Shown here: in pieces, positions 1,017 through 5,787 of the stretch
Position numbering within the stretch: the stretch's first letter is position 1
How the letters are laid out: each line of letters starts with the position of its first letter
UHGV virus genome: UHGV-1707683
From: a virus
Length of the DNA: 10,507 nt
Direction: 5' to 3' (one strand)
Notes under the pieces: model-generated
Database searches by the model: none
What the model was told of the DNA's origin: nothing
What the model saw: the letters and a program-made list of their open reading frames with translations, nothing else
Program-made: the position numbers and the translations under genes

Positions 1017-1250
1017 TTATGCAGCCGATGCTCTACGCGATACGAACACTAGGTTTTCCTTTTTCACAGGTTTATAACCCGTGAAATTACGAGTAGCTTC
1101 TTCGATTGCATTCGCTTTATCAGGGGAAGCTCTTCGAAATCCATATGCAATCTGGTCAAGATAGCCAACTGAAGTTTTCGCTAATGCGGCGAGTCGCTTC
1201 CATTCCTCACTAGAAGCCTCTTTTCGCCAGCGTAGTAGTTCATTACTCAT
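1017..1250 (-). CDS. cro: Cro-position HTH regulator, YdaS/Cro-like family
   Basis: 77-aa ORF divergent from cI. ATG at 1250..1248 preceded on the minus strand by GGAGG (plus 1256..1260 CCTCC). The segment ASPDKANAIEEATRNFTGY resembles the conserved core of YdaS-type Cro-like proteins of E. coli cryptic prophages as I recall them. The symbol is given by position and function, not by similarity to lambda Cro. Confidence 0.6.
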   Translation of the reverse strand: MSNELLRWRKEASSEEWKRLAALAKTSVGYLDQIAYGFRRASPDKANAIEEATRNFTGYKPVKKENLVFVSRRASAA

Positions 1251-1363
1251 TAGTGCCTCCGTTTATCACACAGAACAACTTTACCATTTTGATAAATCAT
1301 CCGCAATGTAAATTTATCATATTGCGTATTTATCCATTTGCTAAATAGAGGGAAAATTGTGAG
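1251..1363. promoter_or_regulatory. Right operator/promoter region (OR with divergent PR and PRM) between cro and cI
   Basis: 113-bp AT-rich divergent intergenic region containing repeated 17-bp dyads of the form TTTATC-N5-GATAAA: 1262..1278 (TTTATC acaca GAACAA), 1280..1296 (TTTACC atttt GATAAA), half-site 1313..1318, 1329..1345 (TTTATC cattt GCTAAA). The same motif recurs at OL (4412..4453). Confidence 0.6.
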
Positions 1364-2068
1364 ATGGAAAACAAAGATATTCGCAAATCGAATCTGGCGT
1401 TTTTGCTAGATGAGCATAAAAAAATCGCGGGTAACACTAATGCAAGCTTTGCCGATAAGCTTGGGGTTAGCCCTTCTCAACTCACGCAAGTCTCCGGTGA
1501 AAAAAGCACTCGAAACATAGGGGATAAACTAGCAAGAAAATTTGAAGCCGCGCTTGGGTTACCTAATGGGTGGCTTGATTTGGTACATGATGTAACACCA
1601 ATTGCATCATGCTCAGATTCTTTAACTTTTGTCGGTCAGGTAAGAAAAGGGTTAGTGCGCGTGGTTGGTGAGGCAATTCTTGGTGTTGATGGTGCCATCG
1701 AGATGACCGAAGAGCGCGATGGTTGGCTCAAAATTTATAGCGATGATCCAGATGCCTTTGGTCTTCGTGTGAAAGGAGACAGCATGTGGCCCAGAATAAA
1801 ATCAGGAGAATATGTACTCATTGAGCCTAACACCAAAGTATTCCCGGGTGATGAGGTGTTTGTCAGAACCGTTGAAGGACACAACATGATTAAGGTTCTT
1901 GGCTATGACAGAGATGGAGAATACCAATTTACAAGCATTAACCAGGATCACAGGCCTATAACGTTGCCTTATCATCAAGTAGCAAAGGTGGAGTATGTAG
2001 CTGGTATTCTGAAGCAATCTCGCCATCTGGATGACATCGAGGCAAGGGAGTGGCTGAAAAGTTCGTGA
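1364..2068 (+). CDS. cI: CI-type prophage repressor (N-terminal HTH, C-terminal LexA-like S24 autopeptidase domain)
   Basis: 234 aa. N-terminal HTH (ASFADKLGVSPSQLTQVSGEKS); C-terminal domain with the Ser-Lys dyad context VKGDSMWPRIKSGEYVLIEP ... GHNMIKVLGY typical of LexA/CI family. Divergent from the cro-like gene across an operator-bearing spacer. Confidence 0.85.
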   Translation: MENKDIRKSNLAFLLDEHKKIAGNTNASFADKLGVSPSQLTQVSGEKSTRNIGDKLARKFEAALGLPNGWLDLVHDVTPIASCSDSLTFVGQVRKGLVRVVGEAILGVDGAIEMTEERDGWLKIYSDDPDAFGLRVKGDSMWPRIKSGEYVLIEPNTKVFPGDEVFVRTVEGHNMIKVLGYDRDGEYQFTSINQDHRPITLPYHQVAKVEYVAGILKQSRHLDDIEAREWLKSS

Positions 2069-2128
2069 CTTCATCGTCACATAGCTGGTAACCAGTGGCC
2101 AGAAGAAACGTTTGGGTGAGGAGGATAG

Positions 2129-2470
2129 ATGGCGTTCACTGACCTTGAATATCAAGCGGTCAAAAAAGAAGTTCACCAATTCATTGAAAGCATAAGGCCG
2201 CCTGAACATATCCGCAATGAACTGGATATTGTTTATAGCATCAATGACCAAACGATAGATATCGGCGAACAGCGCCCCGTGTGGCAGGGCAACCCAGGTG
2301 AAACAAACATCCTGCCATCAGCAAGAATCAAGTACATACGTTCTCTGGATAGATGGAAAATCTATTGGATGCGGAAGGATATGAAATGGCATCAGTACAG
2401 TACTGAACTTTCGCTGACTGATGCGCTTGAGCTTGTGCGTGCTGACCCGGATTGCTGCTTCTTCGGATGA
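2129..2470 (+). CDS. Hypothetical protein (113 aa), first gene downstream of cI; possibly a DUF3024-like small protein
   Basis: ATG at 2129 preceded by GAGGAGG. Contains WKIYWMRKDMKWHQY, which I tentatively recall as characteristic of an uncharacterised ~110-aa bacterial family; this is unverified. Confidence 0.5.
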   Translation: MAFTDLEYQAVKKEVHQFIESIRPPEHIRNELDIVYSINDQTIDIGEQRPVWQGNPGETNILPSARIKYIRSLDRWKIYWMRKDMKWHQYSTELSLTDALELVRADPDCCFFG

Positions 2471-2537
2471 GTGAAGAGACGTTTGGATGATGGATGGTCG
2501 CAGAGATGCGGCCTGATTCTAAAATAGGATATAAAAA

Positions 2538-2999
2538 ATGAGAATACTAGGTGTTAGAGCGGCGCCCAAAGTTACATCTTTTGTTGTATATTGCACTAAT
2601 GAGTCTGCACTCAAATGTGTTGATGTTATTAAAATACCTTCGACCTTAGACACACCAGAAAAATTAAAGTATGTGAGAAATAACATCCTCGACATTCTTA
2701 ATTTATATAATGTTGAATTAGCTGCCATACGCGTTACTGAATCAAACTCTGATAATCTTAGCATTGACCGCCTTTATATAGAAGCTGTTATTCAAGAAGC
2801 ATTTTCAAGCAGTGATGTAAGAAAATATTACACTATTAGAAAATCTGGCATGAAATCATCATTGAACCTAACAGAGATCGAGTATAAAGAAATATTGAAG
2901 TCACACCGCAATATAAATGGAATCGATAATTCTGGTTTTACAACTGAAACAAATGAAGCTGTTTTGGCTGCTCTATCTGCGGAGGTAAGGGGATGCTAA
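2538..2999 (+). CDS. Hypothetical protein (153 aa), AT-rich, translationally coupled to the downstream kinase
   Basis: ATG at 2538 with AGGAT upstream; the stop TAA 2997..2999 overlaps the kinase start ATG 2993..2995 (7-nt overlap). Asn/Ser/Lys/Ile-rich; no motif recognised. Confidence 0.55.
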   Translation: MRILGVRAAPKVTSFVVYCTNESALKCVDVIKIPSTLDTPEKLKYVRNNILDILNLYNVELAAIRVTESNSDNLSIDRLYIEAVIQEAFSSSDVRKYYTIRKSGMKSSLNLTEIEYKEILKSHRNINGIDNSGFTTETNEAVLAALSAEVRGC

Positions 3000-4039
3000 C
3001 TCCATACAAAAGAGCTGATGTAGAATTCGAATGGATTAGTGATCTAGAAGAACAGGGTTGTTTTTCAAAAGTATATCTGGCTCATGACAGACACCTAGCT
3101 CATGACTTGGTGATTAAAGAAATAGAAAAAAAAGAAAACACTAACCACGACGACTACTTTAATGAAGCAAGGCTTCTCTATAAACATGCACATCCAAATA
3201 TTGTGCAAGTTCAGTATGCTGCTCAATGTGAGAGCAATATCTATATAGCCATGCCATTTTATCATAATGGTTCGCTAAACCAATTAATGAAAAAAAATAA
3301 TCTTACAAGCAGGGAGATAATACGGTATTCCATTCAATTTTTAAGTGGACTTTATCATATACACTCAAAAGGTCTTATGCATTTTGATATAAAACCTAAT
3401 AACATTATGATATCAAACAGAAATGAGGCCATGCTATCTGACTTTGGATTATCTCAGTTAGTCAATGAGGAATCGAGAGCTGCGCCTGAGTTTGGATATC
3501 ATTTTCATGTGCCACCGGAATATTTTTCTTTATCAACAAATGATTATAATTTCACATATGACATATATCAGGCAGGATTAACCATATATAGAATGTGTGT
3601 TGGACATGATAATTTTGAAAGAGAAAGATCTGCATTTAGCACGATTGAACAACTCAGAGAGTCGATAATTAATGGCTGCTATCCATTAAAAGAGTATCCT
3701 CCCCATATACATAAAAAATTAATAACAATAGTGAACAAATGCATTCATGTAGATCCAAATGAAAGATATCAATCCGTACTAGATGTACTAAACGATCTCT
3801 CAGCTATAAGTGATGGCGTTCTTGACTGGCGTCTACAGATGACGAAACCAACTAACGGCACATGCGAATGGCAAAAAAAGTCTGGGGACGCTATACTGTC
3901 TATAGTTTTTGACGCAGAAAATTCGTCTACTACTGGTTTTCGTTTATACGATGATGGGCGGAAAAGGCGTGCTACGAACTTAACAATATCCTCAGGATGT
4001 ACCCCTACAAAACTGTATAGGTTATTAAAGGATAACTGA
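2993..4039 (+). CDS. Eukaryotic-like (Hanks-type) protein kinase, 348 aa, non-RD type with C-terminal extension
   Basis: GGAGG at 2981..2985 then ATG 2993. Kinase subdomain motifs read from the translation: beta-3 Lys in LVIKEI (about K42), alpha-C Glu in YFNEARLL, catalytic loop HFDIKPNNIM (D132, nt about 3380..3409), DFG in LSDFGLS (nt about 3440..3448), APE-like PPEY, subdomain IX DIYQAGLTIY. Glycine loop is degenerate (EQGCFSKVY). About 85 residues follow the catalytic core. Position and family are reminiscent of Stk of phage 933W (from memory, unverified). Confidence 0.85.
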   Translation: MLTPYKRADVEFEWISDLEEQGCFSKVYLAHDRHLAHDLVIKEIEKKENTNHDDYFNEARLLYKHAHPNIVQVQYAAQCESNIYIAMPFYHNGSLNQLMKKNNLTSREIIRYSIQFLSGLYHIHSKGLMHFDIKPNNIMISNRNEAMLSDFGLSQLVNEESRAAPEFGYHFHVPPEYFSLSTNDYNFTYDIYQAGLTIYRMCVGHDNFERERSAFSTIEQLRESIINGCYPLKEYPPHIHKKLITIVNKCIHVDPNERYQSVLDVLNDLSAISDGVLDWRLQMTKPTNGTCEWQKKSGDAILSIVFDAENSSTTGFRLYDDGRKRRATNLTISSGCTPTKLYRLLKDN

Positions 4040-4041
4040 TC

Positions 4042-4206
4042 ATGAAAAAGCGCGAGGAAGTAAGCAAGCTGCCTCGCAGACGTGATGCAGCATTAGCGGT
4101 TCCCTACAAAAAAGATGAGTTCATAAGCCCTTCTGATGACAAAAAATTTTCAAAGGCGAAAAGTTTTACATCTACATCTCTAAAAGATAAATACTTTAAA
4201 ATCTAG
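4042..4206 (+). CDS. Hypothetical small Lys-rich protein (54 aa) between kinase and terminator
   Basis: ATG 4042 two nt after the kinase stop; translation MKKREEVSKLPRRRDAALAVPYKKDEFISPSDDKKFSKAKSFTSTSLKDKYFKI; TAG stop at 4204..4206 abuts the terminator stem. Weak SD (AAGGA about 10 nt upstream). Not in the supplied track (under its length cut-off). Confidence 0.35.
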   Translation: MKKREEVSKLPRRRDAALAVPYKKDEFISPSDDKKFSKAKSFTSTSLKDKYFKI

Positions 4207-4230
4207 CCCGGCCTCAGCGCCGGGTTTTCT
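4206..4230 (+). terminator. Rho-independent terminator ending the cI-kinase (lysogenic) operon
   Basis: Stem CCCGGC (4207..4212) / GCCGGG (4219..4224), 6-nt loop, followed by TTTTCTTT (4225 onward). Confidence 0.7.
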
Positions 4231-4404
4231 TTGCCTCACGATCCCCCACCTAAAAAAACATAACTCATTGTATTTGTTGAAAAATAAATAGATACAACTT
4301 GCTAAACAACGCAATCCAGATCTCCCTCAAATCTCTTTATTTATCCTGTCGAATTCCTACAACAAAATAAAACACCATAAGAATCAATACGATATTTGAA
4401 AACG

Positions 4405-4460
4405 AAGAGAATTTATCATTTTGCTATTGCCATTAATTTATCATTCCGATAAAGTTCACC
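4405..4460. promoter_or_regulatory. Left operator/promoter region (OL/PL)
   Basis: Perfect 17-bp dyad TTTATC attcc GATAAA at 4437..4453 and a related site with TTTATC at 4412..4417, 25 bp apart. The motif is the same as in OR. A possible promoter lies on it: -35 TTGCCA 4427..4432 and -10 TAAAGT 4450..4455 (17-bp spacer). Lies upstream of nutL and N. Confidence 0.55.
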
Positions 4461-4518
4461 CATCAGCAGGACGCATTACTCACCAGGGCGGTGAATATAC
4501 AACGATTCGAATATGAAT

Positions 4519-4538
4519 CTACGGCGCTGACAAAGCGC
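4519..4538 (+). promoter_or_regulatory. nutL-like site: boxB-type RNA hairpin CUACG-GCGCU-GACAA-AGCGC upstream of N
   Basis: 5-bp stem GCGCT (4524..4528) / AGCGC (4534..4538), 5-nt loop GACAA, preceded by CTACG. It is near-identical to the minus-strand hairpin at 964..983, with a compensatory change in the outer base pair (G-C versus U-A). Geometry resembles lambda boxB (5-bp stem, GAAAA loop). Confidence 0.6.
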
Positions 4539-4703
4539 AATAACCAAAGTGAACTTTGGGGTGTGGTGAATGGTTCATGGACGGGAATATGTCGCACGTA
4601 AAGCGGCGAGGCCTGTGGGACTATTGCCGAATTGAAGTAGGCCGAAACAGGTCGAAATGGGTCTCCCACCTACCACACCACCAAAGTTCATCAGGAGGTC
4701 TAT

Positions 4704-5087
4704 ATGACACGCAGAACTCAGTTCAAAGGCAATTCACGTTCTCGTCGTCGTGAGCGTTTAAAGGCAAAGGCATTAGCTAACTGCGTACTGGCCCGCGAAG
4801 AAGCAATAAGTTCAGAAGTATTACACCGCCCTACTCTAAGCAGAGCGCAGATTCAGGCTAAAGGTACTCACGAAACGCCTGAGCGCATAGAAGACGCTAA
4901 GCCAATTAAGTTCATGGCACAGGACGTGATCTGGCAACAGAAAGAATACAGACGCAATCTGGAGCGAGCAGCCATTGTGTACGCGAATGAGTTTGGACAT
5001 AAGCAACCAGAAACTGGTGTATGTCTTCCAAACGTAGCCATTTACGCGGCAGGCTACCGGAAATCAAAACAACTGACGGCGAGGTGA
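4704..5087 (+). CDS. N: N-type transcription antitermination protein
   Basis: 127 aa; AGGAGG at 4693..4698 then ATG 4704. N-terminal arginine-rich motif (RRTQFKGNSRSRRRERLKAKALA) typical of lambdoid N proteins; first gene after OL/PL and the nut hairpin. The sequence looks to me like the N of Stx phages 933W/H-19B (recollection, unverified). Confidence 0.8.
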   Translation: MTRRTQFKGNSRSRRRERLKAKALANCVLAREEAISSEVLHRPTLSRAQIQAKGTHETPERIEDAKPIKFMAQDVIWQQKEYRRNLERAAIVYANEFGHKQPETGVCLPNVAIYAAGYRKSKQLTAR

Positions 5088-5148
5088 CTTGTGTTGGTCG
5101 CCAGAAAATGAGATTAGGCAGCAAACCACTTATTTGAGAGGAATTAAT

Positions 5149-5772
5149 ATGTCATCAATCCGCTTAACTACGAGAATGAAAGAGGAAATCGCTCGTAACG
5201 CTTTAATTAAGTCTGGGGTTTTCACTGAACTTGAAGAAGTAACAAAGTTAAAGAACCAGCTTGCACTTGACGCCAGAGTTATTGCGTTTGGCGGGAAAAA
5301 GAAAACCGAAGAAGTGGACCAGCTGGCATCAAAGTTAATGGCTGCAAGTGAGGAACTTCAAAAGCTGGGATGTTCATTTTACTCATGCGATGTCAGTTCA
5401 TGTTCGATTTATCTGACTGTATCTGGAAGAAGGGTTGGCTGGCATTCATACGGAAAAGACGGCAACGGTGAAGATATATTGCTCCCTACCCCCGACAAAG
5501 ATAAATGCATGTTTGACGCAGAACACAAAATAACAAAAAGGTTTGATGAAATCTGCGCATTGCAACAAAAACTTGAAGCCAGGAAAAAGGATATAGAATC
5601 AAACGTATGGGCTGCTTTGAACTCAGTCACAACAGTTAAGCGACTTATTGAAGTTTGGCCTGAAAGCAAAGAGTTGCTACCAAAAGAAGCAGATAAAGCA
5701 AGTGCAGCACTTCCTGCTTTACGGGTAGAAGATTTGAATAAGATGATTGGACTTCCTTCCGAGGCCGCATAA
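5149..5772 (+). CDS. Hypothetical protein (207 aa from ATG 5149; alternative TTG start at 5089)
   Basis: ATG 5149 preceded by GAGAGG; the track's longer ORF needs a TTG start one nt after the N stop. Predicted helical/coiled-coil-like segments; no catalytic motif recognised. Confidence 0.55.
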   Translation: MSSIRLTTRMKEEIARNALIKSGVFTELEEVTKLKNQLALDARVIAFGGKKKTEEVDQLASKLMAASEELQKLGCSFYSCDVSSCSIYLTVSGRRVGWHSYGKDGNGEDILLPTPDKDKCMFDAEHKITKRFDEICALQQKLEARKKDIESNVWAALNSVTTVKRLIEVWPESKELLPKEADKASAALPALRVEDLNKMIGLPSEAA

Positions 5773-5787
5773 TCGGCCTTTATTTTT
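5762..5787 (+). terminator. Rho-independent terminator (tL1-like) with the stop codon of the preceding gene in its loop
   Basis: Stem AGGCCG (5762..5767) / CGGCCT (5774..5779), loop CATAAT containing TAA 5770..5772, then TTTATTTTT. Confidence 0.65.

Follow-up and report, generated by a model that had tools for sequence, protein, structure and literature searches.

The window, that is, the complete stretch of 10,507 nt analysed here (UHGV virus genome UHGV-1707683), is the immunity region of a lambdoid Shiga-toxin phage of the 933W type, and its positions 2100-4300 share 99.4-99.5% DNA identity with 933W, Stx2 phage 86, phi24B and many Stx-converting phages. In the record of 933W (AF125520), cII and cro lie on one strand and the genes and sites cI-L0084-L0083-stk-L0081-tM-nutL-N follow each other on the opposite strand. 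The plus strand of the window carries the cI repressor (1364..2068; Peptidase_S24 and HTH domains, 933W annotation), with which the lysogenic pRM operon begins, followed within the same operon by L0084 (2129..2470), a DUF3024 protein (Pfam DUF3024, E 2e-31), by L0083 (2538..2999), by stk (2993..4039), which encodes the 348-aa Hanks-type protein kinase known as 933W Stk (Pfam Pkinase, E 2e-46), and by L0081 (4042..4206), a basic ORF of 54 aa which starts 2 nt past the stk stop and was assigned by its position and the 933W annotation. A hairpin with a T-run at 4205..4226 (+) resembles an intrinsic terminator and corresponds to tM in AF125520; N is found at 4704-5087. This hairpin was the sole terminator-like site that a terminator scan detected on the plus strand within 1200-4800, and it is the predicted end of the cI-L0084-L0083-stk-L0081 transcript. 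Promoter-like sites within 1200-4800 occurred as often as expected by chance (10 found, 10.3 expected) and thus give no support for an internal promoter. As the GC content of L0083 (0.348), stk (0.354) and L0081 (0.376) lies at about 0.35, whereas cI (0.444), L0084 (0.459) and N (0.487) range between 0.44 and 0.49, the three genes L0083, stk and L0081 stand out in the window as a cassette.

Several features around this cassette deserve mention. Only residues 81-234 of the cI protein encoded here align to the 933W cI (94.8%), and its DNA-binding N-terminus, the first 80 codons at window positions 1364-1603, is without a match in 933W. Four viral contigs (L043, L054, L066 and L075) carry an L0084 gene (99-100% identical) 5′ of the cassette and exhibit no cI match. 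As the cI N-terminus is mismatched in one case and a cI match is absent in the others, one and the same cassette is found following cI regions of differing immunity specificity, and a mosaic joint runs through cI. The early-left genes past N (5089-10322, +) are unlike those in the 933W annotation (L0079, ssb, cIII, kil, gam, bet) and include an ORF of 227 aa, a protein with a P-loop (6433-7113, GESGTGKST) and several further ORFs. L0084 matches PDC-S43 of PADLOC, a candidate single-gene defence family (E 7e-42), and co-occurs with the cassette solely in enterobacterial loci (e.g., L003, L090-L102). It was considered as a member of the module and rejected, as its GC content is normal (0.459) and it has no counterpart outside the enterobacterial loci; it may be a second, independent defence gene that is expressed in the lysogen.

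L0083 extends from an ATG at 2538 to a TAA at 2997-2999, as the sequence-only reading had proposed. An AGGA resembling a Shine-Dalgarno sequence can be read directly at 2526..2529 (+), 8 nt 5′ of the ATG, and a GGAGG at 2981..2985 (+), within the final codons of L0083, represents the Shine-Dalgarno sequence of stk. The ATG of stk at 2993 lies within the junction ATGcTAA, so that the overlap of 7 nt between the two genes is present in the sequence; the conclusion once drawn from it, that both proteins are co-expressed stoichiometrically, does not follow, as an overlap by itself is no proof of stoichiometric expression. The description of the protein as rich in Asn, Ser, Lys and Ile holds roughly, with serine (15), isoleucine (14), asparagine (12) and lysine (10) being frequent among the 153 residues alongside leucine (15) and valine (13). 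That L0083 is not a chance frame is evident from three observations. When the 1.7-kb low-GC cassette was shuffled 2000 times, an open frame of 153 codons never arose (median of the longest frame: 66), all homologues share the start M-[RNK]-I-L-G, and a comparison with its relative in locus L079 yielded a pS of 0.68, a pN of 0.08 and a dN/dS of ~0.05, with the synonymous sites being close to saturation. L0083 is thus a genuine gene on which purifying selection acts strongly, and the coding signature that its presumed role called for is hence found. In the record of Stx2 phage I (AP004402), L0083 contains three annotated 'putative operators' as well as a 'maintenance promoter' (window ~2784-2864), in a region where the promoter scan yielded nothing above chance. 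The same record contains an antisense ORF (ORF-53; window 2519-2764, -) that crosses the 5′ end of L0083, and this frame of 81 codons appears to be a side effect of the coding frame.

The protein had been regarded as unrecognisable and free of any motif that could be placed, a view which cannot be upheld. L0083 is 100% identical to AAD25428, the L0083 protein of 933W (tblastn), and matches PHROG 3875 ('RuvC-like Holliday junction resolvase') along its full length of 153 residues (E 7.8e-91), and recent RefSeq records of E. coli label it 'RuvC family protein'. Its score against the RuvC family of Pfam (PF02075) amounts to 14.2 bits, under the gathering threshold of 22.2, and 22 of 39 family members gave weak matches to this model (best E 1.8e-4). 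An AlphaFold2 model built with 39 homologues (pLDDT 91, pTM 0.87) exhibits an RNase H-like fold with RuvC topology (beta1-3, helix A, beta4, helix B, beta5, C-terminal helices). A Foldseek search with this model against viral models, the check that had been suggested for the protein, returned exclusively RuvC-type resolvases of phages at 7-20% identity, and both RuvC and TEFM are among the structural matches of L0083. A search with the L0083 family profile against PDB sequences yielded nothing meaningful (best E 0.41, ALIX), so that the relationship to RuvC is visible by fold comparison only. PADLOC contained no family for L0083 at E values up to 0.1 and NCBIfam gave no usable match. A profile search of 1.84 billion representatives assigned 435 clusters to the L0083 family (E up to 0.001), and most of the 150 cluster matches listed are stand-alone proteins of ~150-165 residues. 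Natural fusions of L0083 homologues (in the following, gene A) with the kinase were considered and rejected, as the longer proteins are start-codon artefacts and P0219 (211 aa), in which RuvC-fold residues 1-73 are joined directly to the kinase from about residue 67, is a deletion derivative and not a functional fusion.

Although the fold is that of RuvC, the residues which RuvC requires for catalysis appear to be mostly lost. The equivalences between both families rest on low-probability hhalign alignments (2-10%) in combination with a matching order of secondary-structure elements, and they are given in the numbering of E. coli for D7, E66, D/H138 and D141. Since the RuvC homologues listed for the deep profile were all at least 84% identical, the profile-profile alignment remained weak (probability 10%). 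Across 190 full-length members of the L0083 family, the invariant or nearly invariant positions are G5, R7, P34, P40, L43, R47, A62, R/K65, E68, R78, E82, V84, E87 and E140, and the same set is kept by the most divergent members listed. In three alignments (Pfam HMM, hhalign against E. coli RuvC and profile-profile hhalign), R7 falls on D7 of RuvC and R65 on E66. R7 is found in 189 of the 190 members and an Arg or Lys at position 65 in every one of them. The profile-profile alignment additionally places the invariant E68 on the stacking wedge F69 of RuvC and R78 on the Arg of the QARG motif, and a manual alignment of the C-terminal helix equates E140 with D141 and the variable position 137 with D138. 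By these alignments only one of the four carboxylates of the catalytic acidic tetrad (D7, E66, D/H138, D141) would be kept, namely E140, and two would be reversed in charge. The Asp of the first strand binds both metals in RuvC/RNase H enzymes. The L0083 family furthermore has a median net charge of 0 (range -11 to +6) and a pI of 6.4, compared to +6 and 9.7 for enterobacterial RuvC, so that the basic DNA-binding surface as well as the aromatic wedge F69 of RuvC are both predicted to be absent. As D7 is replaced by Arg, E66 by Arg or Lys and F69 by Glu in a charge-neutral protein, the L0083 family is, to judge from its residues, a catalytically dead RuvC, i.e., a pseudo-nuclease. Four glutamates (E68, E82, E87, E140) remain invariant and make a non-canonical metal site conceivable.

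If L0083 had a role connected to the kinase, the two genes should be conserved together, and this is what was found from both sides. Starting from the L0083 family with one genome per species, 39 loci were obtained from Gamma-, Beta- and Alphaproteobacteria, Bacteroidota, Firmicutes and Acidobacteriota, all 39 of which exhibit a Stk homologue (35-58% identical) at the end of the ORF. The more divergent members of gene A, collected from metagenomes, contributed 45 loci, with a kinase present in 42 of the 43 that offered downstream room. In the opposite direction, the best 80 of 259 viral loci with a matching kinase (37-100% identical to Stk) were inspected, two of which were set aside, one with the kinase at the contig end and one with a 5′-truncated kinase; all 78 usable loci contained a RuvC-fold gene ending at the kinase start. 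Among 60 non-redundant pairs, the junction between gene A and the kinase never fell outside -8 to +10 nt (-7 nt in the window). In total, at least 538 Stk-like kinases were counted. The linkage comprises ~160 loci in all, spans Proteobacteria, Bacteroidota, Firmicutes and Acidobacteriota, and is essentially obligate in both directions. As all other neighbours vary, including cI/Cro-type repressors, S24 peptidases, integrases, N proteins, capsid and portal genes, restriction-modification methylases, Old and AbiEii-like ATPases, the cassette is a mobile unit of prophages and defence islands.

Some loci have suffered damage. The kinase is frameshifted or 5′-deleted next to an intact gene A in several of them (L014, 6465-7494; L076, L077, L080, L082, L129 and L131), with the kinases of L129 and L131 being 5′-deleted, and none of the loci examined combined a broken gene A with an intact kinase. 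This asymmetry corresponds to ~5 events and is not significant given the gene lengths (p ~0.16). In two contigs from human gut (L141 and L142), an IS110 transposase is inserted between gene A and the kinase (~1460-3300 in L142); these two, like L129 and L131, belong to the metagenome loci counted above as having the kinase. The genome of an E. coli O45:H2 strain (H25, NZ_CP031916) contains an IS3 element in the cassette region.

The kinase of 933W is one of the classic abortive-infection genes of prophages. Stk of the window is identical to it over the entire protein (100%) and retains the conserved motifs K42, E58, HFD132xK134xxN137, DFG150-152 and PPE, together with a nearly invariant Y169 in the activation loop; its N-terminal 20 residues are conserved as well. 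The kinase domain is followed by a C-terminal domain of ~70 aa, a beta-meander with a helix, which was modelled with a pLDDT of 80 and for which no confident structural relative was found. A Stk-type Hanks kinase that is predicted to be catalytically intact thus sits between cI and tM in the lysogenic operon. Over its kinase domain Stk matches mad6 (E 7e-50) and PD-T4-6 (E 1e-37) of PADLOC, and stk occurs in ~4% of the complete E. coli genomes, including the Stx prophages of O157:H7. In later papers (PMC3564112, PMC3681748, PMC8008677 and PMC3430580, which refer back to Tyler & Friedman 2004 and to Friedman et al. 2011), Stk is described as a eukaryotic-like tyrosine kinase, and two of these sources (PMC3564112, PMC3430580) state that stk is cotranscribed with cI from pRM. 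PMC3681748 and PMC3564112 report little or no activity of Stk in uninfected lysogens, activation upon infection with HK97 and subsequent exclusion of this phage, and Friedman 2011, as cited in PMC3564112, PMC3681748 and PMC8008677, is the source for Stk being an abortive-infection kinase against HK97. The suspected defence-module context of the ORF is thereby borne out, the locus being the stk operon of 933W with a published abortive-infection kinase.

A third coupled gene, which the sequence-only reading had overlooked, is probably part of the Stk unit. In most loci a strongly basic ORF of 50-72 codons (median charge +8) begins at the kinase stop or within a few bases of it, typically as ATGA (e.g., L006, 7490-7672; L135, 5515-5667). 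Outside of Enterobacterales these small ORFs form a family with the motifs L-[ST]-R in the N-terminus and G-[YF]-[IF] in the C-terminus. L0081 shares position, size and charge with this family. Its homology to the family was rejected for now, as it scored 1.2 bits in a leave-out HMM. The small basic ORF could be a substrate, a pseudosubstrate or a third subunit that binds nucleic acids.

Taken together, these observations suggest with a probability of about 0.55 that, in the Stk abortive-infection module of 933W-type prophages, L0083 is a subunit with a RuvC fold and no catalytic activity. The part of this reading in which L0083 is an obligate, non-nucleolytic protein partner of Stk is held with considerable confidence, and what has been treated as a single-gene defence by Stk is probably a unit of two or three genes. 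In the proposed mechanism the low-GC mobile cassette, which is here transcribed together with cI in the lysogen, would produce L0083 as a switch for the kinase. L0083, which would probably form a dimer as RuvC and TEFM do, would make direct contact with the kinase, would hold Stk silent in the uninfected lysogen and would provide or gate the surface that recognises a cue from an incoming phage. Infection, for example by HK97, would then release or activate the kinase, and the resulting phosphorylation would abort the infection. Candidates for the functional surface are R7, R65, E68 and E140, an invariant group of Arg and Glu residues where the active site used to be, and the conserved polar faces of helix A (K44, R47, N48, D52) and helix B (R78, E82, Q86, E87).

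The direction of this regulation, with L0083 acting as an antitoxin-like clamp and sensor, has about an even chance of being correct, and the role of trigger sensor or regulator that the sequence-only reading had suggested is likewise an inference. The clamp-and-sensor direction is favoured because Stk is silent where gene A is co-expressed, because gene A lies upstream of the kinase and is coupled to it as would be expected for an antitoxin and, as a hint only (p ~0.16), because loci with a disrupted kinase keep gene A while the converse was not seen. By analogy, sequester-and-release, a recurrent design among abortive systems, would also fit such an arrangement. Against it stands that the C-terminal domain of Stk itself could be the sensor instead. 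The main rival turns the direction around and is itself rather unlikely: L0083 might be a positive scaffold whose RuvC-fold dimer joins two Stk molecules or recruits substrates, thereby enabling trans-autophosphorylation of the activation-loop tyrosine, in which case it would be needed for activation and not for restraint. RuvC and the RuvC-fold pseudo-nuclease TEFM, both found among the structural matches, are dimers, the invariant residues R78, E82, V84 and E87 lie on helix B, the element through which RuvC dimerises, and the activation-loop Y169 of Stk is nearly invariant; the obligate linkage and the coupling of both genes, in turn, would suit any stoichiometric complex. The upstream position of gene A and the disrupted kinases next to an intact gene A suit an inhibitor slightly better, and Tyler & Friedman 2004 reportedly found that recombinant Stk autophosphorylates on its own, which also counts against a scaffold. 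If so, gene A would be dispensable for catalysis, whichever way it regulates the kinase.

It is improbable that L0083 is a sensor of DNA structure, i.e., a dead resolvase that binds Holliday junctions or branched intermediates of an infecting phage and signals to the kinase, as the family is neutral to acidic (median charge 0, -11 to +6) compared to the +6 of RuvC, an invariant Glu stands in place of the wedge F69 and Arg/Glu pairs line the cleft; within the cassette, it is the small downstream ORF and not gene A that is basic. Database names such as 'RuvC-like Holliday junction resolvase' and 'RuvC family protein' as well as the four invariant glutamates might be taken to indicate an active nuclease, which would cut DNA as the effector by means of a non-canonical acidic site while the kinase serves as its sensor or regulator. 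However, with the first-strand Asp changed to Arg in 189 of 190 members, E66 to Arg or Lys in all, a Pfam RuvC score below the threshold (14.2 vs 22.2 bits) and a surface that is not basic, this appears very improbable; moreover, exclusion as described in PMC3681748 relies on the activation of the kinase Stk. Finally, L0083 could be an unrelated passenger that merely lies beside stk and does something separate, such as taking part in phage recombination, and the searchable literature indeed yielded no functional data on L0083. Yet adjacency and a junction of -8 to +10 nt persist in ~160 loci of at least four phyla where the other neighbours vary, L0083 shares the anomalous GC content of stk, and it is expressed in the lysogenic operon and not with the recombination genes; the linkage data nearly exclude this reading.

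Compared to known systems, L0083 differs from the resolvase RuvC (PF02075; T. thermophilus 4ld0, P. aeruginosa 6lw3), to which it is 12-15% identical, by carrying Arg instead of D7, Arg or Lys instead of E66, Glu instead of F69 and a variable residue instead of D138, by being neutral and not basic, by adjoining a kinase and not ruvAB, and by falling under the Pfam threshold. Other pseudo-nucleases with a RuvC/RNase H fold, such as TEFM, the RuvC domain of Cas12k and the YqgF domain of Tex/Spt6, are related to it by fold and not by sequence; they have other partners, and none of them is paired with a protein kinase. PD-T4-6, Stk2 and mad6 of MADS are likewise Hanks-type anti-phage kinases, but the mad6 and PD-T4-6 models miss the C-terminal domain of Stk, and these systems are filed without a RuvC-fold partner. 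RexAB of phage lambda occupies the same position downstream of cI in the pRM transcript and shares no homology. Type II toxin-antitoxin systems and the AriA/AriB pair of PARIS also couple a small upstream partner to a potentially toxic effector with an abortive outcome; there is no homology to these either, and the inhibitor role of gene A is a proposed one. Unlike a labile DNA-binding antitoxin, gene A is predicted by its model to be a well-folded domain of 153 aa.

The locus itself is not new, as L0083 and stk of the window are 100% identical to those of 933W at the protein level, and the gene L0083, its automatic 'RuvC' label and the phenotype of Stk were already known. In the searchable literature, which does not include the two primary papers, the 933W Stk system is presented as the kinase alone, and neither a RuvC-fold partner nor the small ORF is mentioned. 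A search of this full-text literature yielded no relevant mention of L0083 and no RuvC-like partner of a defence kinase. Absent from it are thus the dead partner, its obligate tight coupling to a kinase clade, the occurrence in at least four phyla and the probable set of three genes. If the kinase needs a dead-nuclease partner and a small basic protein, experiments with one gene and the models of defence finders would be incomplete, and database names like "Holliday junction resolvase" would mislead. The module would then also be a tractable case of a nuclease fold being recycled as a regulator of a eukaryotic-like kinase. The strict linkage over at least four phyla provides a ready paired alignment, with roughly 100 natural pairs collected in this analysis, for predicting the interface of both proteins.

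More tentatively, and with rather less than an even chance, the Stk system may be seen as a phylum-spanning three-gene cassette, in which a dead Holliday-junction-resolvase fold would have been co-opted to switch a eukaryotic-like kinase, a pseudo-nuclease-gated immunity without a described counterpart. In the boldest form of this idea, the dead RuvC may be a look-alike that detects recombination functions of the phage. The determinant of HK97 for its exclusion by Stk is reportedly 'orf41'. If orf41 encoded an Erf-like protein, the trigger would be a protein of recombination, and the module it sets off would contain a partner resembling a resolvase. In the genome of HK97 (L123, NC_002167; region 1787-3043), the unlabelled erf gene falls by gene order between Gp40 and Gp43 (kil), so that its product, an Erf-like annealing protein, would be gp41.
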